Shown here: piece by piece, positions 15,490 to 35,018 of the stretch | Numbering within the stretch: the first letter of the stretch is position 1 | Layout of the letters: every line of letters begins with the position of its first letter | Source of the DNA: a virus | Lineage: Duplodnaviria > Caudoviricetes | Length of the DNA stretch: 56,031 nt | Direction: 5' to 3' (one strand) | Virus record (IMG/VR): IMGVR_UViG_3300008108_000486 | Span: 1-56,031 of that record | Translations under genes and position numbers: made by a program | Notes under the pieces: model-generated | Told to the model about the DNA's origin: nothing | Seen by the model: the letters and a program-made list of their open reading frames with translations, nothing else | The model's database searches: none

Positions 15490-15656
15490 CGAGGAGGGCC
15501 CGAAGATCCAGCCTGGAACTAACAATGTTTGAAGACATCGACAGCTGCAGCTGAATTTAAAAAATTCTTTCTGGGAATACTTGACATGCATTCTAGAGTT
15601 CTATAATATAAATTCCACTAGGGAACCCTAGGGTTTAAATGACGAAAGGAATTGCA

Positions 15657-16097
15657 ATGGGTTACACACATTACTACTCGAAGGTCGACTCATCACGAGA
15701 CGACGCCTTGAGATTCGAAATGTTTTCAATCGGCGCTCGCCGCATCATCGAATACGCAACTACATACGACGGAATTCAAATTGCCGACGGCATGGGCGAA
15801 CAGCTTGGCCAGTGGCAATGCACAAATGAAACTGTTTGGTTCAACGGCTACGGGCCAGATTCACACGAGACCTTTAACTGGTCCATCGATTCCTCTGGAT
15901 TTGGTTTTACAAAAACGGCAAGGAAACCATACGACGCTGTGGTGACGGCATGTCTTATCCACCTCAAAGATATCTATGGAGACTTGGTCAGTATCGGCTC
16001 GGACGGAGATTGGTCAGAGTGGCAAGACGGTGCACGGCTCTACCGCAACGCAACTGGTTTGACGGCGAGCGCACCATTCGAAACAGAAGCGGCTTGA
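15657..16097 (+). CDS. hypothetical early protein
   Basis: MGYTHY...FNG....HETF...FTKTARKPYD...SDG; promoter TTGACA at 15581 and RBS GAAAGGA. Confidence 0.8.
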   Translation: MGYTHYYSKVDSSRDDALRFEMFSIGARRIIEYATTYDGIQIADGMGEQLGQWQCTNETVWFNGYGPDSHETFNWSIDSSGFGFTKTARKPYDAVVTACLIHLKDIYGDLVSIGSDGDWSEWQDGARLYRNATGLTASAPFETEAA

Positions 16098-16207
16098 GAT
16101 AGCCCGGAAATAAGAACAACGGCGTGCCTTTAAGCGAGACCTGTGAGTCAGCAAGGCGCGTCGTTACTTTTTTGAAACAACGGCGAGGGAAAGGTGAGGG
16201 TATATAA

Positions 16208-16447
16208 ATGGGTCGCAAGATTGTGACACGGATAGAGTTTGAGTTCGATGAGGACCTGCTGTACGAGGGTTCTGATTCAACGGATGTAAGAAGTGACGAG
16301 GATGTGCTGGACTACGCAGCGGAGTGCTATGTCGACGATATTTACAACATGGTGAAGTACAACGAGTTGTATTCAGTTGCGAGGAGTCGAACAACTTTCG
16401 TTGATGACGCAGCCGCAGCTGCAGAACCCGGAAATAACAATGTTTGA
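16208..16447 (+). CDS. hypothetical acidic protein
   Basis: ATG ORF with upstream purine tract. Confidence 0.6.
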   Translation: MGRKIVTRIEFEFDEDLLYEGSDSTDVRSDEDVLDYAAECYVDDIYNMVKYNELYSVARSRTTFVDDAAAAAEPGNNNV

Positions 16448-16663
16448 TGTCCAGGGCCTGGATGGCATCCCAGGGCCAGGAAATAATAACTTCAAGAAGG
16501 AGAAGAATTCTGGCAGCGCTGTCCCGGAAATAATAATGTTCGCAGATGTCCAGGGCCCCAGGTCATCAGCCCGGAACTTAGAATGTTTTATTGCACCAGG
16601 GTCCTGAAGACCATCACCGGGAACTGACAACTCAACAAGCAGAGGACATGTCCAGTCAAACTC
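16427..16663 (+). repeat. five degenerate units with ~47-bp period, each starting CCNGGAA(A/C)T.A.AA
   Basis: GGAA cores at 16430, 16479, 16526, 16573 and 16620 (spacing 49,47,47,47). Confidence 0.75.
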
Positions 16664-16732
16664 TTGACAACAATCATTTCTCATTTCTATAATAAACTCT
16701 GTAATGGCAAATCAAATGACGAAAGGAAAGCC

Positions 16733-17365
16733 ATGCCAAACTGGTGCGACAACACTGTGTCCATTACTGGAACAGAAGAAGTAATCAAAAGATTAGAAGA
16801 GTTCGTAGGGAGACCAGTGGTTTCTCATGGTGAGAAAGTAGATGAACCTGTTTTTGCTTTAGGCAACATCAAACCCTCCACACCTGACCTAGACCCTAAA
16901 TACGCAATGTTCCCCTCAAAGGGCGACGACGATTGGTGGAGCAACAATGTAAATAGTTGGGGAACGAAGTGGGATGTGTTCGGCGAGGGCGTCGGCAAAT
17001 CAAGAAACAACGGAAGTGTTAGTTATAGTTTTTCGTCGGCTTGGTCCCCACCAACCCCAGTGATAGAACGGCTTGCCGAGATTTTCCCGGAAGTAAGAAT
17101 AGAGTTCAAGTATATGGAAACGGGCATGGACTTCTGGGGCGTTGAGATTTATGAGAACGGCGAGTTGGTATCCGAAGAGGGTGGTTCTATAAACCACAAG
17201 GCATACGAGGTAATGGAGTATGACGGATGCTACGCATGTCAGTCCTATGAGGAAGAGGGCGAGAGCGAGGAATACTTTGAGTATCTCCATGACGACTGCC
17301 CACCAAAAGTAGAACGGCTTGCCAAGAAAAAGAAGCGCAAGAAAAAAGAAACGGCGAGCGCATAG
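16733..17365 (+). CDS. DUF1281/YubB-like ferredoxin-fold protein (MPNWC family)
   Basis: MPNWCDN, NSWGTKWD, F.SAWSPP, YMETGMDF.G; promoter TTGACA(16664)-TATAAT. Confidence 0.85.
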   Translation: MPNWCDNTVSITGTEEVIKRLEEFVGRPVVSHGEKVDEPVFALGNIKPSTPDLDPKYAMFPSKGDDDWWSNNVNSWGTKWDVFGEGVGKSRNNGSVSYSFSSAWSPPTPVIERLAEIFPEVRIEFKYMETGMDFWGVEIYENGELVSEEGGSINHKAYEVMEYDGCYACQSYEEEGESEEYFEYLHDDCPPKVERLAKKKKRKKKETASA

Positions 17366-17524
17366 GGGGGTAAAAATCTAACGGCGAGGGGGTGGGGTAA
17401 AACCTGCCCCCAATCAAACGGCGAGGGAAAGACGGGAAGCTGGATCGGATCTCCCGGAACTGAAAACGGATAGATGACGCACAGCTCAGCACGCTAGACT
17501 TGACGGATAGAGAAAGGAACACCA

Positions 17525-17812
17525 GTGGGTCGAATACATTATTTTGATATTGACGGTAACTATGGAAACGCTGACAAAATAACAGTGATAGGCACAGAGC
17601 AATGGATACGAGAGGATTTCCTATTACTTCGTGAGTGTAAGGACGAGGATAGATATCTAGTCGCTCGTCTTGTATCTGACTGGATTACAGAGGGTCGAGA
17701 TAACAAGAAATACAAAAAAGAGTTCAAGAAGTATGGACTAAAGCCTCACGACACAATTCCCGAAGTTCCTGAAATCCCTGAAATCTTGAAAGAGGTTGAT
17801 GTAGCCAACTAA
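17525..17812 (+). CDS. hypothetical protein
   Basis: RBS GAAAGGA; YFDIDGNYG motif. Confidence 0.7.
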   Translation: MGRIHYFDIDGNYGNADKITVIGTEQWIREDFLLLRECKDEDRYLVARLVSDWITEGRDNKKYKKEFKKYGLKPHDTIPEVPEIPEILKEVDVAN

Positions 17813-17869
17813 TAATGTTAGTTCCCAGCCACAGTGCTTTGCTGACCTGAACGAACTAACTATCTAACT

Positions 17870-17924
17870 TTCTGCCCCCACGCTTTTACTCGTCATTTGA
17901 GCGTTGGGGGCAGAACTCTTTTTT
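17870..17924 (+). terminator. intrinsic terminator with an unusually large (15-nt) loop
   Basis: TTCTGCCCCCACGCT/AGCGTTGGGGGCAGAA stem followed by a T tract. Confidence 0.85.
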
Positions 17925-18044
17925 ACCCCCTTTCTCTATACGAACGACACGAAATAAATAAAACTTGATTTATAGAATAGAGTGTGGAAAAATTGTCTTA
18001 TGCGTTAGGGAACGCATGAACGACACAGAGAGAAAAGAGAGAAA

Positions 18045-18497
18045 ATGCTAGACAAAGACAAGCCTATTCAGGGTGTTTCTGTTTATGCCGAGTTTTCCAA
18101 GCCCGGCTATCGCACAGAGATTTTTATTACCCCTGACGGATTTTCCAACGAGGGCAAAGTAGTTCCTGCCAAAATCTTTAGCAGGATTACCAGCGCAGAC
18201 AAGCCAAAGAAAGTTTGGCAACAATACGCAGTTCAGTTAGTAGAGGACATGGCTAAGGTTGGTGAAACCTTGCTAGACCCTAGTAAGCGTGAGGACTATG
18301 TATCAAAGCGACTAGAGCATTTAGAAAATGTATTCGCAGGTTTAGTTGCTAATGAGTGGCAGATTACAAAAGAGCCTGTTCTCATAGAAACCAGCAAGAA
18401 CGACTTGTCTGAAATCGCAGAGAGCAAGACACCTGTAAAAATCGTTTATCGTATAAATCAGAGCAGGAAAGCACTTGGCTTTCCAGAAAACTTCTAG
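18045..18497 (+). CDS. hypothetical protein upstream of the AAA ATPase
   Basis: 150-aa ORF, first gene of the unit. Confidence 0.75.
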   Translation: MLDKDKPIQGVSVYAEFSKPGYRTEIFITPDGFSNEGKVVPAKIFSRITSADKPKKVWQQYAVQLVEDMAKVGETLLDPSKREDYVSKRLEHLENVFAGLVANEWQITKEPVLIETSKNDLSEIAESKTPVKIVYRINQSRKALGFPENF

Positions 18498-18509
18498 GGG
18501 GTATCCAAA

Positions 18510-19562
18510 ATGGATTTGGAAACTAAATCAAAACTCACTTCCATAAGTGGAAACTTTTGGAGAATAGTAAATGAGTGTCTTATTCAGGGTGTTGATGATG
18601 AGGTTAGACTTAGACTTGGTTCAGAGGTCAAACCTAGTGGTCGTTGCGTTGAGAGAGCGAGTGGTGATGAAAGAAAAGCACGAACAAGTGCGCCTACTCC
18701 TAGTGGTGTAGAAGTGGCAAACATGGAAGCAGATGAGTTCTATGTTCGCCCTAATGGACAAAAGTATTTCACTCGTTCATGGGGTATCCACACAGATACA
18801 GCAGTTCTACGCAAAGCAAGAGAAGCAACTAATAACTTCTTTTCTAGTGGAGTTGGTTCGCCACAGTTCGCTTACTTCTATGGAGTTCCGGGAACAGGAA
18901 AAACTGCTTTGGTAGAAGCAAGTTTCCATGACGACAAAGTTATTACTTTGGTTGGTAATGGTGATACTGATACCAATGATTTCTATGGTTCTTTTATTCA
19001 GACCCCAAGTGGAAAGTTTGAGTGGGTTGATGGTGGATTTATTGAGGCAGTAGAAAATGGTTATGTATTTTTTATTGACGAGATAGGTCTTATTGACCCT
19101 AAAGCGTTGGCAATAGTTTATGCCGTCATGGACGGACGAAAGAGTATTACTATTCCAATGAACCCTGATAGAGGAACTATCAAAGTCCATGAAAACTTTT
19201 ATGTAGTTTCAGCGACTAATCCAAATGCTCCCGGAGTTAGACTTTCCGAAGCCATGCTTTCTCGCTTCCAACTACAAGTGGAACTAACAACTGATTATGC
19301 GCTCGCAAAGAAGTTAGGTGTTCCAGCGACAATGGTGAGCGTTGCTCAAAATCTTTACAAGCGCACACAAGGCGATAGTGCTGAAATCTCATGGTCGCCA
19401 CAAATGCGTGAGTTGATAGGTTTTAGAGATACTTCCGATATTTTCGGAACAGAGTTCGCTATCGCTAACATGATAGCGAGCGCACCTGAACTAGACAGAG
19501 ATGTTGTAGTTGATGTTATCTCTAGGGCGTATGGGGCAGAATACAAACCTGCCAAGATTTAG
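18510..19562 (+). CDS. MoxR/CobS-like AAA+ ATPase
   Basis: GVPGTGKT, FEWVDG, FIDEI, ATNP, LSEAMLSRF, MREL. Confidence 0.9.
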   Translation: MDLETKSKLTSISGNFWRIVNECLIQGVDDEVRLRLGSEVKPSGRCVERASGDERKARTSAPTPSGVEVANMEADEFYVRPNGQKYFTRSWGIHTDTAVLRKAREATNNFFSSGVGSPQFAYFYGVPGTGKTALVEASFHDDKVITLVGNGDTDTNDFYGSFIQTPSGKFEWVDGGFIEAVENGYVFFIDEIGLIDPKALAIVYAVMDGRKSITIPMNPDRGTIKVHENFYVVSATNPNAPGVRLSEAMLSRFQLQVELTTDYALAKKLGVPATMVSVAQNLYKRTQGDSAEISWSPQMRELIGFRDTSDIFGTEFAIANMIASAPELDRDVVVDVISRAYGAEYKPAKI

Positions 19563-19593
19563 AAAGGGTTTTTACCCCCTTTCTATATATGGT

Positions 19594-19631
19594 GAAAGGT
19601 GGGGGCTTCTCTCTCCCCCACCTTTCCTTTC
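19594..19631 (+). terminator. terminator-like hairpin with CTTCTCTCT loop
   Basis: Perfect 12-bp stem GAAAGGTGGGGG/CCCCCACCTTTC. Confidence 0.75.
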
Positions 19632-19688
19632 TAGGATAGAAATGATACGATTAGAGAGTAAGGACACACGACAAGAAAAGGGAAAGAA

Positions 19689-21467
19689 ATGGCACACCTA
19701 AAGCATAAGGAAGTAGCCAACTCAAAGGTGAAAACACCTAGCGAGTGGTTAGGCGTTGGTTATGAAATCACGCAGTTAGTAAATCGTTGGTCTGATAGAA
19801 CAGACCTAGTTGCGCTAATAAATCAAGAAGCAGGACAAGGCGCACCTGCTTGCTATATCCCAATGTTCGCAGAAATAGAAGTAAATACAAAAGAAGCGTT
19901 TGGGGAAATAACAACTCCTAATCAAGTAAATGATTTGACTAAGAGAAGCAACCAATACGAGTGGGCTAAAGCCACAGGTGCTATTCGCCATGAGGCTTAC
20001 CACGCAAAGTTTTCTGCTTGGGATATGCCAAGTGCTTACAAGGCACTAAAGCAAGATGAATACGAGGCTTTGGTTTTGCTAGAGGAAGGTCGCATAGAAG
20101 CGTGGGGTATCAAGACCCACCCTGACGCAAAAGTTTTTCTACGAGCAAGTGCTATGGGTTTGATTATTGACGAAGCAAAAGAAGTATTTGGAAAAGAAAC
20201 TTCTAGCGTTTCTAGTGCTAGTTCGTTAGTTGGTTTATGCCACGCAAGAGTTATCGCAGGTTCGCTTGATATAGATGAAGCAAGAGAACTTATGGACGAA
20301 GTAGAAAAAGTTTTAGGAAAAGAGTTAGTAGATAAACTCGTTGCGATTATCAGAGAGTTTCAGGCACACGCAACTCACAATGATATTTCTGCTTGCTATC
20401 CACTCGCTATTGAGTGGGCAAAGTTAGTTCGTGATAAGAAAGAGGAAGCAGGTGAAAGTCCTGCCGACTTTTCAGACTTTATGGAAATGATGAGCGAGAT
20501 GTTAGGGGAAATGGAAAAGCAAGTTCCCATTTCTAATGAAAGAGATTTACAAGACCAAAAGCGTTCAGAGGATATGAAAGAGAGCGCAGTTGCTAAAGAA
20601 CAGACTTCTAAAGAGCAAAAGAAAAATGAGGAAATTGCTAAAGAAATCTTTTCTAAATCAACAGGTCCCGGAGAAAGCGCAACTCGTTCTCGCCTAACAG
20701 AGAAAAGACCCCCTAATGGAAAAGAGCGCAATAGCGCAGTAAAAATCTCAAAGGCTTTGGAAAGAGCAAAGTATCGTGAGCGTGGGATTACAGAAGTAGG
20801 AAGTATCGTTCCTCCCGGAAAACTAAATACACGAAAGATTATTCAGGCTAAGGCTTTGGAACAAAGAGGCGTATTTACTCAACCAACTGCTTTCACAAAG
20901 AAAGTTCGTAAGCACACAGACGAGCCACCACTAACAGTTGGAGTAATGGTAGATATTTCAGGGTCAATGGGAAGTGCCATGAACCCAATGGCTTCTACTG
21001 CTTGGATTATGAGTGAGGCAGTTCGCCGAGTTCAGGGAAATGTCGCTATGGTTTATTACGGAAGTGATGTGTTCCCAACTCTCAAAAGAGGGCAACGACT
21101 AAAAGATGTAAATGTCTATTCTGCCCCTGACGGAACTGAAAAGTTTGATAAGGCGTTTCGTGCTTTGGACGGCGCACTTCACTTGATTTATGGTGAGGGC
21201 GCACGATTACTCGTAATCGTTTCGGACGGACAATACACACATGAGGAAACAGAAAGAGCGAAGTCATGGATAAAGACCTGCTCTAAGCATGGTGTCGCAG
21301 TTCTATGGCTTCCTATTGGCGACAATGGATACCACGCAAAAAATATATGCGAGGGTTCTAACGCAGAAATAGTTGTCGGCATAACTGACCCAACAAGTTC
21401 GGCGTTGGCTATTGGCAAGTCTGCCGAGAAAACTCTCTCAACGGCAGGAAAGCGTATGAGCGCATAA
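19689..21467 (+). CDS. CobT-like protein: N-terminal HExxH zincin-like domain plus C-terminal VWA domain
   Basis: HEAYH, LEEGRIE, GKLN, MIDAS DISGSM, IVSDG. Confidence 0.88.
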   Translation: MAHLKHKEVANSKVKTPSEWLGVGYEITQLVNRWSDRTDLVALINQEAGQGAPACYIPMFAEIEVNTKEAFGEITTPNQVNDLTKRSNQYEWAKATGAIRHEAYHAKFSAWDMPSAYKALKQDEYEALVLLEEGRIEAWGIKTHPDAKVFLRASAMGLIIDEAKEVFGKETSSVSSASSLVGLCHARVIAGSLDIDEARELMDEVEKVLGKELVDKLVAIIREFQAHATHNDISACYPLAIEWAKLVRDKKEEAGESPADFSDFMEMMSEMLGEMEKQVPISNERDLQDQKRSEDMKESAVAKEQTSKEQKKNEEIAKEIFSKSTGPGESATRSRLTEKRPPNGKERNSAVKISKALERAKYRERGITEVGSIVPPGKLNTRKIIQAKALEQRGVFTQPTAFTKKVRKHTDEPPLTVGVMVDISGSMGSAMNPMASTAWIMSEAVRRVQGNVAMVYYGSDVFPTLKRGQRLKDVNVYSAPDGTEKFDKAFRALDGALHLIYGEGARLLVIVSDGQYTHEETERAKSWIKTCSKHGVAVLWLPIGDNGYHAKNICEGSNAEIVVGITDPTSSALAIGKSAEKTLSTAGKRMSA

Positions 21468-21528
21468 AGGTTTCGTGGTTGGGTATCTTTCCCTGAAAGA
21501 AAGTGTGTCCCCCCGACTACGGATAACG

Positions 21529-21568
21529 GAAACCCCCCACAAGTGGTTGTGTGGGGGTTTCTGCTTTT
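21529..21568 (+). terminator. intrinsic terminator
   Basis: GAAACCCCC../..GGGGGTTTC stem with a T-rich tail. Confidence 0.7.
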
Positions 21569-21858: not shown

Positions 21859-21926
21859 GCAAATGCTTGAGGTTCTATTTTAGAAATGCTAGGCTTGTGC
21901 CAAGACAAATGACGAAAGGGTAAAAA

Positions 21927-22082
21927 ATGGCAAAGTATGAAGTTGTAGTTTCAGCAGAAGTAAGAACAGTTTGGGAAGCCGATAGCAAGGAACAGGCTCT
22001 ACGACAGGCAGAGGCTTGGACGGCAGAGGAATATGGCGACTTGGTTCATAAGGCAAACTTTGGAGTAAGGGAGTTAGCGTAA
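21927..22082 (+). CDS. hypothetical protein (51 aa, not in the ORF track)
   Basis: MAKYEVVVSAEVRTVWEADSKEQA...; leader CAAATGACGAAAGG. Confidence 0.7.
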   Translation: MAKYEVVVSAEVRTVWEADSKEQALRQAEAWTAEEYGDLVHKANFGVRELA

Positions 22083-22315: not shown

Positions 22316-22342
22316 CAAGCGATATATAACTAGGGGGTAAAA

Positions 22343-22816: not shown

Positions 22817-22861
22817 TTATAGAATAGATACTACATAAAGGGTAAAAACGAAGGGACACAA

Positions 22862-24666: not shown

Positions 24667-24797
24667 TTTTTACCCCACTTATCTATACGCCACGACACGA
24701 ACTAAAATGGATTTGACGAAATAAAACTTTCTAGGATAGAGTTATCTCACTAGGCAAGGAGCCTAGAAAAGACAAAGTGAAAGGTAGGAAGTAGCCA

Positions 24798-25232: not shown

Positions 25233-25257
25233 GTATCCCTAGTCCTACAAGTCGGCG

Positions 25258-25290
25258 AACCCCCTTGCGAAAGCAGGGGGGTTTTGCTTT
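25258..25290 (+). terminator. intrinsic terminator
   Basis: AACCCCCTTGC-GAAA-GCAGGGGGGTT plus T tract. Confidence 0.85.
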
Positions 25291-25517
25291 TACCCCCTTT
25301 CTATATATAGGAGAGGGGTAAAAAGAAACGGCACGGCACGCTATTGCGAAAGAGCAGGAGAGTGTTATAGAATAGAACTACCGAACTAGGGAAAGGTAAA
25401 ACAATGAAAGCAAGTTGCGTAGAGTGCGGGCGAGTATTCGACCTAACTAATGAAACGGATTTACAGGAAGCAAAATAAGACCTAACTATTTCAATAGTAG
25501 AAATAAAGGCGAGCAGT

Positions 25518-25769
25518 ATGGAAGAAGCCGAAGCGGTTATGCAGAGGTTCATAGATGAAATCGGCAAGGTTATGACGGACGAGGTTCGTTGGGACGAAGC
25601 GGATTGGAGTATTCAGGAAAACACTATGAACGCAGAAGGAACAGGTTGGGAAGTAACGGACGAGGGTGTTCCAGAATACTTTGAGATGAGTGATGTGGAA
25701 GCAGATGCCGACACACTTGCGAGCGCAGGACACGGAACAGACGAGGATTACGGATACTATGGAGATTAG
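25518..25769 (+). CDS. hypothetical acidic protein (5' end apparently lost)
   Basis: SDVEADADTLASAG.GTDEDYG motif; the frame is open upstream to an abrupt junction near 25475. Confidence 0.7.
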   Translation: MEEAEAVMQRFIDEIGKVMTDEVRWDEADWSIQENTMNAEGTGWEVTDEGVPEYFEMSDVEADADTLASAGHGTDEDYGYYGD

Positions 25770-25810
25770 AGCGATATATAAGAGAGGGGTAAAAAGTGGG
25801 AGGTGTAAAA

Positions 25811-25951
25811 ATGAAAAAGGGAAATAGCAAAAGTGCGGTGAGAAAGAACGCCGACAAACTAGATGAACTAATGCGGAAAATGGCAAGCGAAAAAACCTAC
25901 AAGGATTATCTAAAAGTAAGAACAGAGTTTCGCGCCGAGTTAGGGCTATAA
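25811..25951 (+). CDS. small basic protein (46 aa, not in the ORF track)
   Basis: RBS GGAGGT; followed by a terminator. Confidence 0.6.
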   Translation: MKKGNSKSAVRKNADKLDELMRKMASEKTYKDYLKVRTEFRAELGL

Positions 25952-25966
25952 GTAAAAACAGGAAAG

Positions 25967-26005
25967 AGTCCCTGGATCCGAATTGGGTTCAGGGATTATT
26001 TTCTT
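25967..26005 (+). terminator. intrinsic terminator
   Basis: AGTCCCTGGATCC/GGGTTCAGGGATT stem with a T-rich tail. Confidence 0.7.
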
Positions 26006-26016
26006 TAGGCGTGTTG

Positions 26017-26045
26017 TTGTAAATGTCAGAGAACTAGGATAGATT
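26017..26045 (+). promoter_or_regulatory. sigmaA-type early promoter with conserved spacer
   Basis: TTGTAA-17 nt (ATGTCAGAGAACTAGGA)-TAGATT. Confidence 0.75.
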
Positions 26046-26085
26046 TATCTCACTAGCAAAACGCTAGAGAACTAGGGAGAAAAAA

Positions 26086-26478
26086 ATGACACAAGGAAAA
26101 GCAGTAGTTATCAAGACAGATGGCTCAAAAGAGGTTGTTACTTTCACGATTGGTGACTCTTACAAACTACTATCAAACACAGTCGAGGGAATGATTGAGT
26201 GTGTGCGGTTGGCAGAAGATACCGATATGTGGTGCAACGAAAATGGAATTGCAGAAGGTCGCGATTTGAATCTAATGGCTTCGGCTATCTATAACGAAAC
26301 TTTCGGCGTAGCGAATCCTATTCTTGGAAATGTAATCATTACAGGTGGCGCAGATGATGAGGGTGAAACCCTTGGGCTTACCGAGGAGCAGGTTCAGAAG
26401 TGGCTCGCCTATAACAAGGCGGTAATTCCAACGGCTTACTTTGAAGACCCAATGTATGCCGAATACCTAAGCAGGTAG
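26086..26478 (+). CDS. DUF3846 domain protein
   Basis: VEGMIECV, MWCNENG, N.MAS, ILGNVIITG, L.EEQ. Confidence 0.85.
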   Translation: MTQGKAVVIKTDGSKEVVTFTIGDSYKLLSNTVEGMIECVRLAEDTDMWCNENGIAEGRDLNLMASAIYNETFGVANPILGNVIITGGADDEGETLGLTEEQVQKWLAYNKAVIPTAYFEDPMYAEYLSR

Positions 26479-26491
26479 AAGAATCAAAAAG

Positions 26492-26524
26492 AGTCCCTCA
26501 CCAAAAGGTGGGGGATTTTTTTTT
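26492..26524 (+). terminator. intrinsic terminator
   Basis: AGTCCCTCACC-AAAA-GGTGGGGGATT plus long T tract. Confidence 0.85.
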
Positions 26525-26539
26525 GCAAAATGCTAAAAA

Positions 26540-26764
26540 ATGTCAGTCTCTTATGAAAGAATAATAAATGTGGAAAACAATGACAAAGCAAGTGAATACG
26601 CATACAAAGCCCTTATGGGTAGCATCTTCGGAACTGCAAAGCCAGTAGACGAAAACCCGATAGTCCAAAAGCGCACCACAATTTGGTTACACGAAAACTT
26701 CACAGATGATGAAATCTGGGAAATGTATGACACCATAAAGTGGGAGCAAGAACTCAAGGAATAA
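26540..26764 (+). CDS. hypothetical protein (true start probably downstream)
   Basis: ORF between promoter-like sequence and terminator. Confidence 0.55.
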   Translation: MSVSYERIINVENNDKASEYAYKALMGSIFGTAKPVDENPIVQKRTTIWLHENFTDDEIWEMYDTIKWEQELKE

Positions 26765-26774
26765 AGTAAAGAGA

Positions 26775-26807
26775 AAGCCCCCGTCAGAAATGGCGGGGGT
26801 TTTTTTT
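26775..26807 (+). terminator. intrinsic terminator
   Basis: AAGCCCCCGTCA-GAAA-TGGCGGGGGTT plus T tract. Confidence 0.85.
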
Positions 26808-26969
26808 ACCCGATTGCTATATATAAGAGAGGGGTAAAAAAGGCTAGGGCTAAGTGTCGGCTAGAAGTGGGAAAGTATTTTCCGGGTGAAATGCATCGGC
26901 AGCTAGCCGGGAAATAATAATCTATGATAGAGTTTGCTTGCCGTAGAAAACTAGGGAAAGGAAAAAACT

Positions 26970-27428
26970 ATGAGCGCAATAGGAGTAGCAGAGGGAAAAA
27001 TATCTTTCTCTCTAAATAGTGATTGCCAATGCTTTGACTGTAATAAGTGCGGTATTGGTTATATGGGTGGAGAAGCCGGGGAGAAATGTAGTGACTGCAC
27101 GGGTGGAGTATTAGAAAACGCCAATGGTTGTATGGGTTGTTGGGACGATAGCGAAAGTATTTTTTACGACACTATCTACGAATGGCGCAAGGAAGTCGGA
27201 GTGAATTGGGGCTTAGTAAGGATTGACGGAAGAGGTATGGGCTGGACTAAAGAAATGGGAAGCGCCGTAGTGCCGTTGGATAAGGCTTTGAAGGCTTTGA
27301 CACTAAGAGGTGACTTTCGAATTGAGGTTGAGTTTAGTGGAAAGAGTTTCAGCGCTCGCCGTTATTCTCACGATGAGCCGACAGGAGCGAGTTTCTTTTT
27401 CACACTAGTCAAGGGTGAAGAAGACTAG
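26970..27428 (+). CDS. Cys-rich hypothetical protein
   Basis: Multiple CxC/CxxC, MGW..G, SHDEPTG; CTAGGGAAAGG leader. Confidence 0.8.
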   Translation: MSAIGVAEGKISFSLNSDCQCFDCNKCGIGYMGGEAGEKCSDCTGGVLENANGCMGCWDDSESIFYDTIYEWRKEVGVNWGLVRIDGRGMGWTKEMGSAVVPLDKALKALTLRGDFRIEVEFSGKSFSARRYSHDEPTGASFFFTLVKGEED

Positions 27429-27446
27429 AAAGGCTATGGACGCGAG

Positions 27447-27472
27447 AAGCCCTGCCGAGAGGTAGGGCTTTC
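27447..27472 (+). terminator. terminator-like hairpin
   Basis: AAGCCCTGCC-GAGA-GGTAGGGCTT. Confidence 0.7.
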
Positions 27473-27508
27473 GTGTTATTGTTGGCATATATAGAAGAGG
27501 GGTAAAAA

Positions 27509-27820
27509 ATGGATGAGATACCGAATGTAAAGAATGTAATCTTTATTGGAGATTACTTTTCAATGATTGTGAGCGTTGCCGTTCCTGGATCTGAAGTAAA
27601 GGATGGCGAAGCCTATGAAGACGCTTGCTTGCGTTCCGCTGGGACTTTGATGAAAGAGCATTATGGTTGGGATGTTCAAGCAGTTAGTAGACATATTGGC
27701 GTTCTCGATGAGGGAGACCCTAATTGTGAGACTTGCTATGGAGCAGGGAAGGTTAGTTCAGAGGTAGCTGGCTCAATGAGAGAAGTCGAGTGTCCCGATT
27801 GCTTTGCTAATAGGGGGTAA
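27509..27820 (+). CDS. hypothetical protein with a C-terminal zinc finger
   Basis: CETCYGAG and CPDC motifs. Confidence 0.75.
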   Translation: MDEIPNVKNVIFIGDYFSMIVSVAVPGSEVKDGEAYEDACLRSAGTLMKEHYGWDVQAVSRHIGVLDEGDPNCETCYGAGKVSSEVAGSMREVECPDCFANRG

Positions 27821-27858
27821 AATTTTTGCACCGAGAGTTTCAGATGTTAGAATAGTAG

Positions 27859-27957
27859 TCCGGGTAGTAGTGCGGATTCCCTTCCTGCGCTCCCCGTTGA
27901 GGTGAGATACCCTACTCACCGCACTTTCACCCATGTTCCCTAGCATGGGTGAAGTGT
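27859..27957 (+). ncRNA. candidate three-hairpin small RNA with UCCCU(AG)-type loops
   Basis: Promoter TTGCAC(27826)/TAGAAT(27848), no ORF, three consecutive stem-loops with loops TTCCCT, ATACCCTA and TTCCCTAG; next promoter starts at 27963. Confidence 0.7.
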
Positions 27958-27962
27958 CTATC

Positions 27963-27991
27963 TTGCAAATGTCAGGTAAGTAGTTTAGACT
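27963..27991 (+). promoter_or_regulatory. sigmaA-type early promoter with conserved spacer
   Basis: TTGCAA-17 nt (ATGTCAGGTAAGTAGTT)-TAGACT. Confidence 0.8.
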
Positions 27992-28101
27992 TATAGTAAC
28001 TTGGTAGGGGCTAGTCGCTGGACACCTGAACGCCTAGAACTTGCAAGGGGCGGAAACAATACGACACCCTACCGAGTCTCTAACCTAGGGAAGGAAAGTA
28101 A

Positions 28102-28335
28102 ATGAGTTACGAAGGAAGTATGAAAGGCTCAGGTATCTACGCCGAAGATGTGACTTTTGAAGTCGAGTGCGAAGAGTGCGGTAAGTCTTGGGAAGAAGAT
28201 TTTCAGACAGATGACTGGGGAGATGTTCAAGCAGAAGTAAAGTGCGAGTGCGGTCACGAATGGACTTTCTCAAGGGAGAGAGGCGAAGTAGATGACTCTA
28301 ATGAACCCGATAGATTAGAAGACCTATGGGACTAA
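28102..28335 (+). CDS. small acidic zinc-ribbon protein
   Basis: CEECG...CECGH; CTAGGGAAGG leader. Confidence 0.75.
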   Translation: MSYEGSMKGSGIYAEDVTFEVECEECGKSWEEDFQTDDWGDVQAEVKCECGHEWTFSRERGEVDDSNEPDRLEDLWD

Positions 28336-28338
28336 AGG

Positions 28339-28368
28339 AAGCCCCGCCGAAAGGCGGGGTTTTTCTTT
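28339..28368 (+). terminator. intrinsic terminator
   Basis: AAGCCCCGCC-GAAA-GGCGGGGTT plus T tract. Confidence 0.9.
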
Positions 28369-28430
28369 GCCCCGATATATAGAAGAGGGGTAAAAAATCA
28401 GGGAAGTGCAATGCCGTTATTCTTGAAGTC

Positions 28431-28679
28431 ATGGAAATCGTTCAAAAGTATTATCATTCAAATGGTGGTAGCGCTCCGTTTATGGTCGCAATAGTTGATG
28501 ACCCTGCCGATGGAGACACAAAACTTGTAATAATGTTTGAAGAAGAAGAATGCACCGCAGTTCTTTCTTTAGATACTTTGATAGAGAGTGAAGACATAGG
28601 TAAGAAAAACTCTTATTCAGGGGAAAGATACGAGTATGCTTTGCGTGATGAACTTTGGAATGACTCTAACTACTACTAA
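28431..28679 (+). CDS. hypothetical protein
   Basis: YH.NG..APF motif. Confidence 0.7.
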   Translation: MEIVQKYYHSNGGSAPFMVAIVDDPADGDTKLVIMFEEEECTAVLSLDTLIESEDIGKKNSYSGERYEYALRDELWNDSNYY

Positions 28680-28702
28680 AAAAATCAGTAAGGAAAAAAG
28701 AA

Positions 28703-29272
28703 GTGACCACAATAGCTGCCGTTCAGGGTGAGGGCTGGGCTGTTGTTGGCTATGACTCTAGAGTTTCAGAAGAAGATGGTAGGGCTTATACCTTGCCGAA
28801 AGATAATGGAAAAATAATAAAGAATGGTTCTTATCTTTTAGGTGCGGCCGGGGATATGAGAGCAATAAATCTTTTGGCTCATGTTTTCAAGCCACCGATA
28901 TGTAACCCAACAACAAGAGGCATAAAGTTAGATAAGTTTATTACTACACACTTTATCCCGGATCTAAAAAAGTGTTTTGAGGAAAACTCATATTCAAAAG
29001 ATGGCGAGCAAGACTCTCAAATAATGGTTTTGGTAAATGGAACTATTTATGAGATAGGCGAAGATTATTCTTGGTGTCACGATGAAATGGGAGTTTATGC
29101 TATTGGTTCAGGTGCGCCGTATGCTTTAGGTGCGCTCAATGCGTTGGCAGAAGGAAAGAAAAGAACTCTTACAGGGGCTAGAGGTAGTTTGAAGCTTGCG
29201 CTCGCCGTATCTTGTAAGTTTGATAAGCAGTCAGGCGAACCTATTTATTTACAAACTCAATACACCGAGTAA
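28703..29272 (+). CDS. Ntn-hydrolase, HslV/proteasome-beta-like protease
   Basis: MTTIAA (N-terminal Thr nucleophile), DSR, K, GAAG, AIGSG..YALG. Confidence 0.85.
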   Translation: MTTIAAVQGEGWAVVGYDSRVSEEDGRAYTLPKDNGKIIKNGSYLLGAAGDMRAINLLAHVFKPPICNPTTRGIKLDKFITTHFIPDLKKCFEENSYSKDGEQDSQIMVLVNGTIYEIGEDYSWCHDEMGVYAIGSGAPYALGALNALAEGKKRTLTGARGSLKLALAVSCKFDKQSGEPIYLQTQYTE

Positions 29273-29304
29273 GGGGTTTTACCCCCCTACTCTATATGCA
29301 CCGA

Positions 29305-29424
29305 CTATTTAGGACAGTCAGGGCAGATTAGGTTGCGGTAATAATCTCTTTGGCGTATTTGGAACTTTTCTCCGCATAGGTAGCAGTTTATCCAAATCAT
29401 CACTTGCTTTGTTCTTGTTGCCAC
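29305..29424 (-). CDS. small zinc-ribbon protein
   Basis: GTG start after AGAAAGGGA RBS; CYLCG...CPDC. Confidence 0.65.
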   Translation of the reverse strand: MATRTKQVMIWINCYLCGEKFQIRQRDYYRNLICPDCPK

Positions 29425-29498
29425 TTGAGTTCCCTTTCTCTTGGCTTGGTATAAGTCTATCCTAGAAACACGCCGAAATAAGTATTTCGCTAGGTGTG

Positions 29499-29527
29499 TT
29501 GAAAACATCAGAGAACTATCATAGACT
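29499..29527 (+). promoter_or_regulatory. sigmaA-type early promoter with conserved spacer
   Basis: TTGAAA-17 nt (ACATCAGAGAACTATCA)-TAGACT. Confidence 0.75.
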
Positions 29528-29555
29528 TGTATTACTAGGGAAAGGAGGGAACCAA

Positions 29556-29780
29556 ATGGGAAAAAGTTTTGCAGGAATAGACGCACCGAAGTATCCAGAA
29601 ATCGAAGTTCAACTTACTGGCGAAGATGGAAATGCCGTAGCGATTATGGGTCGTGTGTCTAACGCTATGAAGAAGGCAGGAGTTTCTCAAGAAGAAATAA
29701 ATGCTTATCTTGATGAAAGTATGTCGAGCGATTACGACAACTTGCTACGAACTGCCGTGAAGTGGGTTTCAGTAGCGTAA
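29556..29780 (+). CDS. hypothetical protein (L.G.DGNA family)
   Basis: LTGEDGNA.AIMG.V..AMK.AG...DYDNLL; CTAGGGAAAGGAGG leader. Confidence 0.85.
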   Translation: MGKSFAGIDAPKYPEIEVQLTGEDGNAVAIMGRVSNAMKKAGVSQEEINAYLDESMSSDYDNLLRTAVKWVSVA

Positions 29781-29793
29781 GGTTCTAAAAGAT

Positions 29794-29822
29794 AAGGGGG
29801 GCGAAAGCCCCCTTTATTTTTT
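29794..29822 (+). terminator. intrinsic terminator
   Basis: GGGGGC-GAAA-GCCCCC plus T tract. Confidence 0.85.
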
Positions 29823-29849
29823 ACCTCTTTTTTATTTATAGGTATGCCG

Positions 29850-29878
29850 TTGTAAAAGTCAGGGAACTAGTTTAGACT
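29850..29878 (+). promoter_or_regulatory. sigmaA-type early promoter with conserved spacer
   Basis: TTGTAA-17 nt (AAGTCAGGGAACTAGTT)-TAGACT. Confidence 0.8.
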
Positions 29879-29907
29879 AAAGACAAGGGAACTAACTAGG
29901 GAGAAAT

Positions 29908-30489
29908 ATGAAGCAAGATAGTTTAGAAAGTAAAATCCTTTTTCCTACCAAATGGGTAGATGAAAATTGTTGGTATTGGCTTGGACAACTCAATAAAAAT
30001 AATCCTTCATATGTCGTAAAAGTAGAAGGCAAGAGAATTGCAATTAGAGTGCGCCGACTAATGTGGGAAATAAATGTTGTTGATAACAAAGAAAAACCTA
30101 TAACAAAGCGTGATGTAATAATTTCAGTGTGCGGAGATAATTTATGTGTAAACCCTTCTCACTTGAAAAAATATACAAAGACAGAAGCACTTGACTTGGG
30201 CTACCTAAATCAAGCGCAGAGGACACAAGAAAGATTTGCAAAAATTACTCATTGTCCTAGAGGACACGAATACACAGAAGAAAACACTGCCTATAACACA
30301 GGCAAGTGGGCTACCAATAGAACTAGAACTTATAAGTGCCGTTATTGTAAAACTTGTAATCGTGAGAGAGCGGCTCAAAGAAAACTCAAACTAGGTGCAA
30401 CACGACTTGTAAAAGATTACGAAGGCAGAGGACTACTAACTACCGAACTTATGGACATAATCTTCAAAAGACCAGTGAGAAAGTTCTAG
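29908..30489 (+). CDS. HNH (His-Cys box) endonuclease-like protein with a C-terminal THCPRGHEY zinc domain
   Basis: CWYWLG, C.D.LCVNPSHL, THCPRGHEYTEENT, C..C. Confidence 0.75.
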   Translation: MKQDSLESKILFPTKWVDENCWYWLGQLNKNNPSYVVKVEGKRIAIRVRRLMWEINVVDNKEKPITKRDVIISVCGDNLCVNPSHLKKYTKTEALDLGYLNQAQRTQERFAKITHCPRGHEYTEENTAYNTGKWATNRTRTYKCRYCKTCNRERAAQRKLKLGATRLVKDYEGRGLLTTELMDIIFKRPVRKF

Positions 30490-30614
30490 AAAGATTTTTA
30501 CCCCCCTGTTATATATGCCGAACGATAGAAAAAGTTTTTGGAGGTCCAGGACCCGGAAATGAAAACTTTTGGTTCAGACTTGAAAAAGTCAGGGAAGTAG
30601 ATTATTATTCAGGT

Positions 30615-30806
30615 ATGAAGTTCTTACCCGATAGCGCAATACTTGGAACGCTTGGACATATCAAGCACGCTGGCAAGGCACGCCCTAAGAAGCGTATTGC
30701 TCGCCGAGTTGATACACGCTCCGAGTTTGTAGGTGGTGGCGACTTTAGAAGTCTTGAGCAGTTGCTCGCACTAGCGAAACAACACGCCGAGAAATCAGGG
30801 AAGTAG
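30615..30806 (+). CDS. small basic protein, likely leaderless
   Basis: ATG 6 nt after the -10 of promoter TTGAAA(30580). Confidence 0.55.
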   Translation: MKFLPDSAILGTLGHIKHAGKARPKKRIARRVDTRSEFVGGGDFRSLEQLLALAKQHAEKSGK

Positions 30807-30858
30807 AAAAAAGCAGGGAAGTAAGATAGAGTTATCTCACTAGGGAAAGGGAAAACAA

Positions 30859-31056: not shown

Positions 31057-31083
31057 GAGAGATATATAAGAGAGGGGTAAAAA

Positions 31084-31919: not shown

Positions 31920-31922
31920 TTC

Positions 31923-32281: not shown

Positions 32282-32593
32282 AAGGTTGCATTATAGAGAA
32301 GTGGGGTAAAAGCCACTTCTCTGCAACTTTTTTGGGGCATTTTGGATTTTTAGGCGTTTAGCACGATGATCCATAGTTTTGTGTGTAAAAATCTTTTTTG
32401 AGACACACGCTCAGGGTGACTTGACTGCAGAACTTCCCTGCATTTATGCTATGGTTGTAATCAAGTAAGAACCCAAGTGACACAAGGAGATATACGAATT
32501 AGACACTTGAAGTAAGGCTATCCCCTAAGAGGCGATGGTCGGGTTAGTGAAGTCTCTAACCCTGTCCCCGTAACCTAACAAAGGAAAAACCGA

Positions 32594-33214: not shown

Positions 33215-33615
33215 TGAGCGAGCAAGAAGAGTTGAAGCCTTTACTTGGTTCAGTAGAGCCAGTAGTTTCTGCCCCTGCCCCAGTAGCAGAGCCAGTAGTT
33301 ATGGTGAAGGAAGAGCCAAAGAAAGAAAGCAAAGCCCCGAAGTTGAACACCGAAGGCGACAAGATCGTTTTCATGTCTGCTTTGAAGGTTGGTGCTTATG
33401 AAGGTAACTCCGAAAGTGTAAAGACAGTTCAACTCCGTTTAGTTGAACTTGGCTTCGATACTTGCATGAACGACAAGTTTGGTCGTTTGGGAAGTGGAGC
33501 AGTAGAAGCGATAAACGCTTACAGAAAATCAAAAGGTCTTTTAGAGAATGGCGCTTTTGATGAAGAAGTCTTGGCACATTTATTTGCTGGCACTAATGTA
33601 GGTGTCAAGCACTAA
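33214..33615 (+). CDS. peptidoglycan-binding domain protein
   Basis: VKTVQLRLVELG...G.LG..A..A....KGL..NG. Confidence 0.7.
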   Translation: MSEQEELKPLLGSVEPVVSAPAPVAEPVVMVKEEPKKESKAPKLNTEGDKIVFMSALKVGAYEGNSESVKTVQLRLVELGFDTCMNDKFGRLGSGAVEAINAYRKSKGLLENGAFDEEVLAHLFAGTNVGVKH

Positions 33616-33626
33616 AGCATTGCAAC

Positions 33627-33666
33627 AAAAAACCCCCTACCTTGCGGTGGGGGGCTTTTTGTTTTT
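33627..33666. terminator. bidirectional terminator between convergent genes
   Basis: A tract, CCCCCTACC/GGTGGGGGG stem, T tract. Confidence 0.85.
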
Positions 33667-33672
33667 GAAGCT

Positions 33673-33999
33673 TTATCCGTATACAACCTCACCTAGCACC
33701 GCAACTTGAAGAACTGCATCACCGCAAATAGCGTCATAGTTGTCGAAGTCAAATAGATCCATGCTTACTTGATTATTAGCAATAGGAAGAGCCTTGCCTA
33801 GTTCTTCAATTCCAATAATCTTTTCAGTTCTTTCTTCAGTTACTTCGTCAATAGCAACTAAACGAACCTTGCCGATCTTGTCCCAATCAGTGCCGTCCAA
33901 GTATTCAACTTCTTCCCAGTGGGTTCCGAAACTTTCAAAAGCAGAACCAAACACTGAAGACCATAATTCTTTTTCGTCTATTGTGATTGTGATTTCCAT
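33673..33999 (-). CDS. hypothetical protein
   Basis: ACTAGGGAG leader, own promoter; DA...D.VLQ.AVLGEVVYG motif. Confidence 0.8.
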   Translation of the reverse strand: MEITITIDEKELWSSVFGSAFESFGTHWEEVEYLDGTDWDKIGKVRLVAIDEVTEERTEKIIGIEELGKALPIANNQVSMDLFDFDNYDAICGDAVLQVAVLGEVVYG

Positions 34000-34105
34000 T
34001 TTGTTTTCTCCCTAGTGCGGTTTTTGTTTGGTTGTTTACCGCTAAGAAAATAGTAACCTACTTCCCTGCACTTTTGCAAGTCTTAGTGCCGTGTGTTTTA
34101 GGTAA

Positions 34106-34138
34106 CAAAAAACCCCCTATCTCTAGGGGGTTCTTTGC
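34106..34138 (-). terminator. intrinsic terminator
   Basis: AACCCCCTA/TAGGGGGTT stem with a T tract on the minus strand. Confidence 0.8.
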
Positions 34139-34147
34139 CGTTAGGGG

Positions 34148-34408
34148 TTAGGAGGCAACCTGTAACAGTCTTGGCAATGCTTTCTCTTCTAAAGTTCTTG
34201 CGGTGTTTGGCATGATGATATTCCACAAGATCTCAGAATCAGACAAGGTGCGGAACTCTTTAGTAGTTCCAATGTATGTTTCTTCTGTAACAACTAATGC
34301 GGTGATATCTGTTGAACCTTCAATTAGTTCTTTCACCTTTACGGTTGTCTCAATGTGGAAGTAGTAAGTAGTTCCACCTGCAGTAATCGCTACTCCATAA
34401 GTTTTCAT
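34148..34408 (-). CDS. hypothetical protein
   Basis: ACTAGGGAG leader; promoter TTGCGA/TATGCT. Confidence 0.75.
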   Translation of the reverse strand: MKTYGVAITAGGTTYYFHIETTVKVKELIEGSTDITALVVTEETYIGTTKEFRTLSDSEILWNIIMPNTARTLEEKALPRLLQVAS

Positions 34409-35018
34409 TTGCTTCTCCCTAGTTAGTTAGTTGATCGTTTGACCAACAGGGAAAGCATATAATACTTGTCTGCACTTTCGCAAGACATGTCATAGATTTT
34501 TTGTAGGCATATCAAAACATAGACATGCTTGCTTGTCCTAGATTTTTCCTATGCTTGGTTTGTAAGTTACTTGATAAAGCTTATGAGTAACTTACTTGGA
34601 AGTAACAAGTTAGTTTGATGATCTTCTTTATAAGTCTAGATTAGAACTTGATAGTTCTATATAAGTAACTTCTATTAGAAAACTTTTTTATTTGTAAAAA
34701 TATTTTTGTTAGAAAAATTTTTTGTAATCAAAAAAGATTTTTATTATTTATTATGTAAAGAAAAATAAATAATAAATAGATCATAGGCATGTATAGGCAG
34801 GTTATTGGATATTTTTTAGTCAAAAATGGGGGGTAAAAAATATGCGGAACCGCATGAAAAAATACCCCGGAACGATTTCAAAAAGTCCAAAAAACACCCC
34901 CTGTCTTCTCCGGGGTCAAAATCAAAATATGGAAAGGTTCATATTTTCGTCTCTGTCGTACAAGCTTTAGAGCCCTTCTTTAAATTCACCTTCTTTAGAC
35001 TCCCGTACAATTACTTTC

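Follow-up and report, generated by a model that had tools for sequence, protein, structure and literature searches.

Complements of translation start regions at the 3' ends of consecutive, plausibly early operons in a phage family

A 56,031-nt stretch of DNA from a tailed virus (Duplodnaviria; Caudoviricetes), corresponding to positions 1 to 56,031 of the IMG/VR virus record IMGVR_UViG_3300008108_000486 and hereafter called the window, was analysed together with related phage loci for complementarity between hairpin loops and the leader sequences that precede the start codons of genes. In three consecutive transcription units, designated A, B and C (Table 1), the 3' end carries the complement of a translation start region of the same unit, mostly at the apex of a hairpin, and comparison with relatives shows that selection keeps it there. 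For these three units and for a predicted small RNA, the matches between loops and leaders are real and far beyond chance once relatives are taken into account. Probably, such anti-start-site loops at operon 3' ends would mask ribosome binding and limit the operon's own translation.

The window is a 56-kb fragment with an estimated completeness of 42%. Between ca. 15.6 and 33.6 kb every gene lies on the + strand and most are small and without a family match; this block is split into short units by sigma-70-like promoters and hairpins, and its genes are plausibly early ones. Searches of the GenBank phage collection for DNA similar to the window gave nothing, and relatives had to be reached via the protein sequence of the ATPase encoded in unit B. 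This ATPase shares 57% identity with its counterpart in Actinomycetia phage DSL-LC01 and 52% with the one in Microbacterium phage Pumpernickel. DSL-LC01 is reported to be a metagenome-assembled lake phage with a predicted actinobacterial host (PMC10611076). The DNA runs that contain the region are labelled as freshwater or lake metagenomes; for the window phage itself a host can only be inferred. In the relatives, gene starts were set via tblastn and simple rules, and hairpins were chosen by energy or with a stem finder, some being missed.

An earlier note on this DNA had proposed that early genes share a few leader words and that each word has a same-strand stem-loop whose loop is its reverse complement. 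The positions of the words were borne out, with CAAATGACGA at 16713 and 21906 (given there as 21907, off by one), TAAATGACGA at 15636, AGAGAGAA at 18027 and 18036, and GGACACA at 19662 and 22854. CTAGGGA, which had been placed before about 10 genes, has 8 copies on the + strand between 15618 and 30840 and one further copy at 36292. The corresponding + strand reverse complements are TCGTCATTTG at 17890, TTCTCTCT at 19607, TGTGTCC at 21504, and TCCCTAG at 25236 and 27937; TCCCTAG at 34009 and 34416 belongs to the leaders of minus-strand genes. Three of the five complements do occupy the loop of a stem-loop (17886-17898, 19606-19614 and 27936-27942) and those at 21503-21510 and 25236 do not. As had been claimed, three elements are found at the 3' end of the very unit whose first leader they match, namely units A, B and C. 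Leader words of orthologous genes differ between lineages, a situation that fits the idea of an exchangeable "address". The leader word AAATGACGA includes an ATG (15639-15659, 16716-16735 and 21909-21929) whose coding use is inconsistent across the three leaders: before gene 21927 it opens a mini-ORF of 4 codons (ATG ACG AAA GGG TAA), ahead of gene 16733 it lies in a frame other than that of the gene, and at 15639 it shares the frame of the conserved start at 15657, which is why the list of open reading frames (ORFs) begins this gene at 15639.

Within the window alone, the complementary runs between a unit's own leader and its own 3' region reach 11, 8 and 9 nt in units A, B and C, respectively, and the probability that at least 3 of 12 own pairs have a run of at least 8 nt is 0.0015 against shuffled 3' regions. 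When own pairs were compared with non-own combinations of leaders and 3' regions they did not stand out, as 17 of 132 non-own pairs also reach 8 nt (binomial P = 0.19), because many 3' regions contain T tracts and TTTTACCCCCTTTC, which suit purine-rich leaders; in this matrix the first gene was taken to begin at 15639, its conserved start being more likely ATG 15657. By chance, about one copy of a 7-mer such as TCCCTAG would be expected per 19 kb. The objection that matches to purine-rich leaders are no better than chance thus could not be rejected from the window, and it is the relatives that point to selection. Two early scans, one of all hairpins and all in-frame starts and the other of terminator-like hairpins and 8-mers anywhere, were too noisy and no counts were drawn from them.

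For unit B, 105 related loci with both genes were collected, of which 85 passed the filters (hit beginning at residue 3 or earlier, start codon, enough flank, both genes adjacent) and gave 50 distinct leader/hairpin combinations. Each leader (-30..+3) was compared with the 23-nt apex of the strongest hairpin past the ATPase stop, the score being their longest Watson-Crick run. Runs of at least 8 nt were found in 38 of the 50 own pairs and in 550 of 2450 non-own pairs (22%), and none of 20000 permutations reached the observed sum. The matches are made by 23 different words, among them AGAGAGAA in the window and AGAGATACC, GATACCAAT, TTAACCTAGAGAG, CAAGGACAC and AAAAACCA in relatives, where leader/loop pairs such as GACACCCATG/CATGGGTGTC occur alongside GATACCCATG/CATGGGTATC. 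A matched word is usually unique in its 10-kb locus, with one copy in the leader and a reversed one in the loop, and 30 of the 38 matches overlap -12..+3, some covering the start codon. The hairpins of the relatives are very stable (-20 to -33 kcal/mol); hairpin B of the window is followed by CTTTCCTTTCT, and C-rich tails often follow in relatives. These data indicate that the complementarity between loop and leader in unit B is maintained by selection through sequence change. In DSL-LC01, the unit B match covers 6 nt only. The "loop" of the minimum-energy fold of hairpin B in relatives was tried as an alternative to the fixed apical window and abandoned, as it closes weak inner pairs and hid matches. 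In five lineages (L157, L094, L110, L137 and L146), the -35 box of the next promoter, located ca. 30 nt past hairpin B, reads TTGACACCCA and thereby repeats the leader word GACACCCA, complemented by the preceding loop, which may be a coincidence or a further link.

An unbiased scan of hairpins (see below) pointed to a second hairpin or stretch in unit B that begins in the last codons of the ATPase gene and whose loop, just past the stop, complements the Shine-Dalgarno region of the ATPase gene itself. Own pairs of ATPase start and stop-proximal stretch have a run of at least 8 nt in 23 of 61 distinct lineages, compared with 5.2% of non-own pairs (0/20000 permutations). For 46 lineages, both 3' elements could be confronted with both start regions of the same genome. 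For the distal loop, the mean run is 8.0 against the start of the first gene (at least 8 nt in 30 lineages) and 4.5 against the ATPase start (2 lineages); conversely, the stop-proximal stretch matches the ATPase start with a mean run of 6.8 (18 lineages) and the first gene with one of 4.5 (1 lineage), the Wilcoxon P values being 9e-9 and 9e-8, respectively. Since this control shares genome and composition, base bias cannot explain the specificity. Unit B therefore carries one candidate anti-start-site element per gene, which goes beyond what the earlier note had described.

In unit C the match is made of two collinear parts, GGACACAC/GTGTGTCC and AGGGAAAGA/TCTTTCCCT, with a joint energy of -28.7 kcal/mol that none of 500 shuffles equalled; GTGTGTCC (21503-21510) is embedded in a conserved structure and is partly held by weak G.U and A-U pairs. 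Comparison of the leader with the 130 nt past the stop in 71 distinct lineages gave a mean run of 8.48 for own pairs vs 6.42, with runs of at least 9 nt in 30 of the 71 own pairs and in 7.3% of non-own pairs (0/20000 permutations). The words are up to 15 nt long, and the Shine-Dalgarno sequence is part of many of them. The distal part of the match does not vary within the near clade; the part close to the Shine-Dalgarno sequence changes along with the leader. The GenBank genome of DSL-LC01 displays a 13-nt unit C match in a hairpin loop; its homologue of the 592-aa gene is annotated as "cobalamin biosynthesis protein". At ca. 20950-20973, the 592-aa gene encodes V-D-I-S-G-S-M-G, which looks like a metal-site DxSxS motif, and together with the MoxR-like ATPase it resembles a CobS/CobT-like pair.

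The loop of hairpin A is matched by several leaders. The stem of this hairpin has 15 pairs, 4 of them compensatory, and the loop is invariant across 5 lineages with four stem variants; loop UUUUACUCGUCAUUU, of about 13-16 nt, is identical in every lineage that possesses it. Each of these genomes has a single reverse copy of the word, always in the loop, and 3-7 forward copies, nearly all of them in leaders, including the first leader of the unit itself. Lineage L092 combines loop TCGTCATT with six AATGACGA leaders; in its sister L093 the loop reads TCGTCGTT and is found with two AACGACGA leaders, one of them directly downstream, and four AATGACGA leaders. Loop and leader have thus been altered together in L093, which is the kind of covariation that the earlier note had looked to relatives for, and since the G of the L093 loop can pair with both C and U this situation fits RNA pairing and not a DNA site. 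Ahead of the unit B promoter, 41 strong hairpins were found, and 9 of them match a start region further upstream over at least 9 nt, vs 0 for a complement-only control, and in other clades loops TTTCTTCGTCGTTT are complementary to AAACGACGAA leaders. The exact 15-mer of loop A was found in at least 115 IMG/VR stretches, nearly all by chance; among the matches listed, it occurs inside a hairpin in already known lineages only. For the second gene of unit A (17525), inspection of 17813-17869 by eye, with no computation, showed no convincing complement of its start region. In the metatranscriptome run X20, 13% of the sampled words were present; it gave 12 short contigs of depth 3-5, mostly within 16408-17879, and one of them stops at 17879 inside hairpin A, although contigs cannot show RNA ends.

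An unbiased scan of 1301 strong hairpins in 136 loci gave complements of upstream start regions (at least 9 nt, within 5 kb) in 72 cases vs 11 for the control, and complements of downstream start regions in 41 cases vs 10 for the complement-only control.

The CTAGGGA class involves a predicted RNA located between genes (Table 1). The eight CTAGGGA leaders of the window mostly read ACTAGGGA(A/G). The predicted small RNA has 34 pairs, 8 of which are compensatory among 8 sequences, and its C/U-rich loops GGAUUCCCUUCCU and UUCCCUA are invariant or nearly so; several of its loops, of the UCCC type, would be complementary to Shine-Dalgarno regions. The duplex of the H3 loop with the start region of gene 26970 has a predicted energy of -12.7 kcal/mol, which 1.4% of shuffles equal. 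No Rfam family covers this RNA, the only hits of the window that reach the gathering threshold being two tRNAs, and at E<=1 the interval 15500-34500 gave nothing over it and far-sub-threshold hits over terminators only. The other TCCCTAG copy lies within ATCCCTAGTC, which is kept in all six near lineages and forms a trivial stem of 4 bp only. It complements the ACTAGGGA leaders and not the leader of its own unit, which it matches over 6 nt only, so that it would act on other RNAs, if at all. CTAGGGA is plausible as an addressed RNA class, much less tested than units B and C.

Table 1. Location of the features discussed in the text (window positions)
Feature	Position	Strand	Details
Sigma-70-like promoter of unit A	16664..16693	+	TTGACA-18-TATAAT; 12/12 consensus positions
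Leader word CAAATGACGA	16713..16722	+	Precedes the first gene of unit A (ATG 16733) by 11-20 nt
Further sites of the CAAATGACGA word class	15636-15645, 21906-21915	+	Before ATG 15657 and ATG 21927, respectively
Unit A, coding part	16733..17812	+	Genes 16733-17365 (DUF1281_C-like) and 17525-17812
Terminator hairpin A	17870..17915	+	Followed by a T run; loop 17886-17898; TCGTCATTTG at 17890-17899 is the reverse complement of the leader word
Leader of gene 18045	18027..18043	+	AGAGAGAA twice (18027-18034, 18036-18043), abutting the start codon
Unit B, first gene	18045..18497	+	150 aa; no family match; N-terminus MLDK(D/E)K kept in relatives
AGGGGGTA in ATPase start region	18496..18503	+	
Unit B, second gene (ATPase)	18510..19562	+	AAA_5 / MoxR-like (Pfam AAA_5)
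TACCCCCT, candidate element for the second gene	19573..19580	+	10 nt past the ATPase stop; complements the ATPase start region
Hairpin B, end of unit B	19591..19628	+	-22.3 kcal/mol; 9-nt loop CTTCTCTCT (19606-19614) complements the leader of gene 18045
Leader of gene 19689	19662..19687	+	GGACACAC 19662-19669; AGGGAAAGA 19679-19687
Unit C gene	19689..21467	+	592 aa; no Pfam or PHROG match
Conserved structured 3' element, unit C	21472..21523	+	TCTTTCCCT 21486-21494 and GTGTGTCC 21503-21510, collinear complements of the two leader segments
Terminator past the unit C element	21534..21557	+	Conforms to the rule of the terminator scan
Leader of gene 22862	22854..22860	+	GGACACA; orthologues in relatives have other words
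ATCCCTAGTC, 3' untranslated region (UTR) of gene 24798-25232	25235..25244	+	Single-stranded 10-mer right past the stop
CTAGGGA leaders, seven	25386..30846	+	25386, 26072, 26951, 28085, 29535, 29896, 30840; an eighth at 15618
Promoter-like site	27825..27853	+	TTTGCA-17-TAGAAT with upstream TG; before the small RNA; position conserved in relatives
Predicted small RNA	27856..27962	+	Ca. 105 nt, three hairpins; within intergenic region 27821-28101
Small RNA, H1	27861-27896	+	Apex GGAUUCCCUUCCU
Small RNA, H2	27901-27920	+	Loop C-rich, variable
Small RNA, H3	27921-27957	+	Loop 27936-27942 UUCCCUA; TCCCTAG invariant

Another set of repeats is associated with start codons. In several genes the start codon marks the end of a ca. 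21-bp motif, (C)ATATATAAGAGAGGGGTAAAAA, whose reverse complement, TTTTTACCCCCTTTCTATATA, is found on the same strand, the copies being spread over 10356-34830 of the window: forward copies are located for instance at 22334, 27499, 31074 and 31730, and reverse ones at 17921, 19570, 21611, 24056, 24668, 25288, 29277 and 30496. Five of these eight reverse copies lie 2-24 nt past a stop codon, and 25288-25323 is a full palindrome of the GGGGTAAAA/TTTTACCCC motif. Between 10 and 35 kb, GGGGTAAAA occurs 19 times and TTTTACCCC 10 times, vs 0.25 and 0.03 expected from composition. In lineages L007 and L013 they are replaced by GGGGAAAAA/TTTTTCCCC (14/7 and 13/7 copies), both orientations having switched together. 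The GGGGTAAAA/TTTTACCCC motif may represent a fifth class of leaders together with the corresponding anti-start-site element, or the target of a DNA-binding protein.

The mechanism that we consider probable can be outlined as follows. The first, presumably early units of this phage and of a wide family of uncultured freshwater relatives end in stable G+C-rich hairpins or structured 3' elements displaying complements of translation initiation regions, that is of the Shine-Dalgarno sequence, the spacer, the start codon or the sequence just upstream. Once the 3' end of the mRNA is finished, the displayed loop would pair with the 5' start region located ca. 1.1-1.9 kb upstream; this would hinder binding of the 30S subunit and possibly also provide a double-stranded substrate for a nuclease, the outcome for each transcript being a limited burst of protein. 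Judging from copy number and linkage, the words of units B and C, each found a single time in a genome, would act inside one molecule, and shared words between molecules, with AAAUGACGA facing loop A and CUAGGGA facing both the three-loop small RNA and the 3' UTR 10-mer. Overall, the RNA pairing interpretation is well supported by the sequence comparisons, and the "timer" of the earlier note, in which early mRNAs are translated while nascent and silenced later, has the standing of a hypothesis. We infer that pairing takes place in vivo and that repression is its outcome.

A wider proposal is that protein-free RNA addressing, with one displayed loop per gene plus shared loops, acts jointly as pulse generator and timer; we regard it as tentative, with the balance tipping against it. 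The finished transcript, or a nuclease-resistant 3' stub of it, would silence exactly the genes that made it, and loop A, the TTTTACCCC motif and the three-loop small RNA would later silence whole leader classes. Swapping a leader word would shift a gene between shut-off classes, as orthologues in relatives suggest.

Several observations weigh against masking of start sites by loops, in addition to the lack of excess of own pairs over non-own ones in the window. Many lineages do not follow the rule: runs are below 8 nt in 12 of 50 lineages for the first gene of unit B, six of them (L016, L097, L116, L118, L121 and L144) being below 7 nt, in 38 of 61 for the ATPase and in 17 of 71 for unit C. 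Eight of the 38 unit B matches are wholly upstream of -12, where a ribosome block is not required. The duplex formed by loop B of the window is weak (-11.0 kcal/mol, equalled by 7.6% of shuffled loops), and in a loop of 9 nt a pairing of 8 nt is impossible without strain; GUGUGUCC of unit C is partly paired in the consensus fold, and the H1 loop of the small RNA does not surpass its shuffles (15.6%). Units past 24 kb end in tetraloop terminators without address, so that no rule for every unit can be claimed, and at the homologous places of the cultured relative, Microbacterium phage Pumpernickel, intergenic room and hairpins are absent. Finally, the metatranscriptome contigs are uninformative on ends or pairing, and the lineages are mutually related, a kinship that the permutation statistics ignore.

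Among the other explanations, the 3' hairpins might act mainly between molecules, nuclease-resistant 3' fragments accumulating and later silencing their unit or class, as in the timer of the earlier note, with pairing inside a molecule secondary; this is possible, if somewhat doubtful. Loop A matches the leaders of several units, some of them downstream of it, complements of downstream start regions are enriched (41 vs 10), a separate small RNA with its own promoter-like site bears the CTAGGGA complement, and hairpins of -20 to -33 kcal/mol would suit persistent fragments. The private words of units B and C have however a single forward and a single reverse copy in each locus, both invariably within one unit, and with one element per gene on the same mRNA, linkage within a single molecule is the simplest explanation. 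That the same 5'-3' pairing serves the stability or processing of the mRNA, the loop covering a nuclease entry site in the leader, as in Bacillus subtilis hbs, or joining the ends, is unlikely: the 8 upstream matches of unit B, the conserved GGACACAC at -27..-20 and the DSL-LC01 match do lie upstream of the Shine-Dalgarno sequence, but the remaining 30 unit B matches overlap -12..+3, some with the start codon, and those of the ATPase and unit C are centred on the Shine-Dalgarno sequence. Moreover, the ATPase start is internal to the mRNA, so that protection of a 5' end cannot explain its partner.

It is very improbable that the pairing makes termination depend on translation of the first gene, with an unoccupied leader invading the nascent terminator and altering read-through into the next unit. 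Hairpins directly precede the promoter of the next unit and several of them have poor U tracts; against this, the complement has its centre in the loop and does not involve the stem arms, so that the hairpin would still form, and both the stop-proximal ATPase element and that of unit C are followed by a separate terminator. Least credible of all is a DNA-level feature or chance (inverted repeats flanking mobile gene cassettes, sites bound by a protein in both orientations, or a coincidence in composition of purine-rich leaders and pyrimidine-rich terminator regions), for which speak the lack of excess of own pairs in the window, the GGGGTAAAA/TTTTACCCC motif with its TATATA core, found in both orientations and as one palindrome like a protein-binding site, and the TCCCTAG at 25236, which is at the chance frequency of a 7-mer, but which is at odds with 23 unit B words that keep their match with a start region and a hairpin apex always as partners, with elements that are gene-specific within a genome, with a loop G that serves both C and U leaders, with stems that covary around fixed loops and with a complement-only control of equal base composition that gave 11 cases vs 72.

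Loop-exposed seeds that pair with Shine-Dalgarno regions are known to repress translation, as in the C-rich loops of RNAIII-type RNAs and in the fold-back of type I toxin mRNAs. Staphylococcal RNAIII and Rsa RNAs have several hairpins with C/U-rich UCCC loops complementary to Shine-Dalgarno regions; the predicted RNA at 27856-27962 is alike in its loops but is phage-encoded, belongs to no Rfam family and has the CUAGGGA leaders as presumed targets. In hok/Sok, a toxin-antitoxin pair, the full-length mRNA folds back so that its two ends pair, and it stays untranslated until 3' processing activates it. The likeness resides in the 3'-5' pairing of one mRNA, whereas units A-C have no match to a toxin family and neither an antisense promoter nor a processing signal was identified in them.

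In icaR, a C-rich motif of the 3' UTR pairs with the Shine-Dalgarno sequence of the same mRNA, blocks the initiation complex and gives a substrate for RNase III; a 3' UTR motif complementary to the Shine-Dalgarno or start region of its own mRNA is likewise found in the window and family-wide. However, icaR is one gene in one genus, whereas the phage has several consecutive operons with per-gene elements in unit B, and phage words, unlike icaR, reach the gene-specific spacer and start codon, are placed in terminator-type loops and have diversified over dozens of lineages. The Bacillus subtilis hbs mRNA is described as pairing end to end in a way that modulates leader cleavage by RNase Y and stabilises the mRNA; long-range pairing between both ends of one mRNA would be common to both cases, but that of hbs affects leader cleavage whereas most phage matches cover the ribosome-binding site itself. 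Also in B. subtilis, Gill et al. (2025) describe pyrimidine-rich anti-Shine-Dalgarno-like 8-mers, hundreds of nucleotides downstream, that pair with the ribosome-binding site in vivo, lowering translation and promoting decay (PMC12697547). Such pairing supports feasibility over hundreds of nucleotides; those 8-mers are, by this account, generic and selected against inside genes, whereas the phage elements are gene-specific, located past the stop, displayed in loops and maintained. In Escherichia coli, the terminator loops of SdsR, RseX and ArrS are reported to take part in fepA control, "likely without base-pairing" (PMC11979758), so that the likeness lies in an informative terminator loop, the phage evidence being instead one of base complementarity. 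Searching the open-access literature by exact word matching returned no description of phage operon ends that complement their own start sites, which is weak evidence of absence. What would be new is a 5'-3' UTR anti-Shine-Dalgarno control with per-gene addressing and breadth across a phage family.

Other features were noted in the same region. The repeat family CCGGAANTNANAA has 13 copies (13980-17466 and 30553) vs 0.12 expected, most of them lying between genes at around 14-17.5 kb, with both strands represented. Five copies of repeat AACGGCGAGGG, allowing no more than 1 mismatch, occur (16179, 17350, 17380, 17417 and, on the minus strand, 27353) vs 0.34 expected, and they cluster past the stop codons of genes 15639 and 16733. 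A box, ACGACACGAA(A/C)TAAA, precedes two promoter regions (ca. 17943-17955 and ca. 24690-24702), and relatives have it at the corresponding places. The terminator hairpin past the last + strand unit (32294-32323) has a loop, GGGGTAAAAG, that corresponds to the sense of the start-site motif and not to its complement. An HslV-family peptidase-like gene (28703-29272) and an HNH endonuclease gene (29908-30489) lie inside the block of small genes, and tRNA-Glu(CTC) (4914-4987) and tRNA-Trp(CCA) (5617-5688) are both encoded on the minus strand.

End-to-end pairing of bacterial mRNAs is known from a few single genes (icaR, hbs) and is usually seen as a curiosity. In ca. 50-70 distinct phage lineages, the potential for such pairing is kept, is gene-specific and recurs in three consecutive operons. 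These data provide a large covariation set for long-range pairing between loops and start sites, and they flag a new predicted phage small RNA. If the pairing is repressive, it would give each early operon a compact, self-limiting burst of expression without any regulatory protein, and the words of this phage family would constitute a natural set of orthogonal RNA "addresses".

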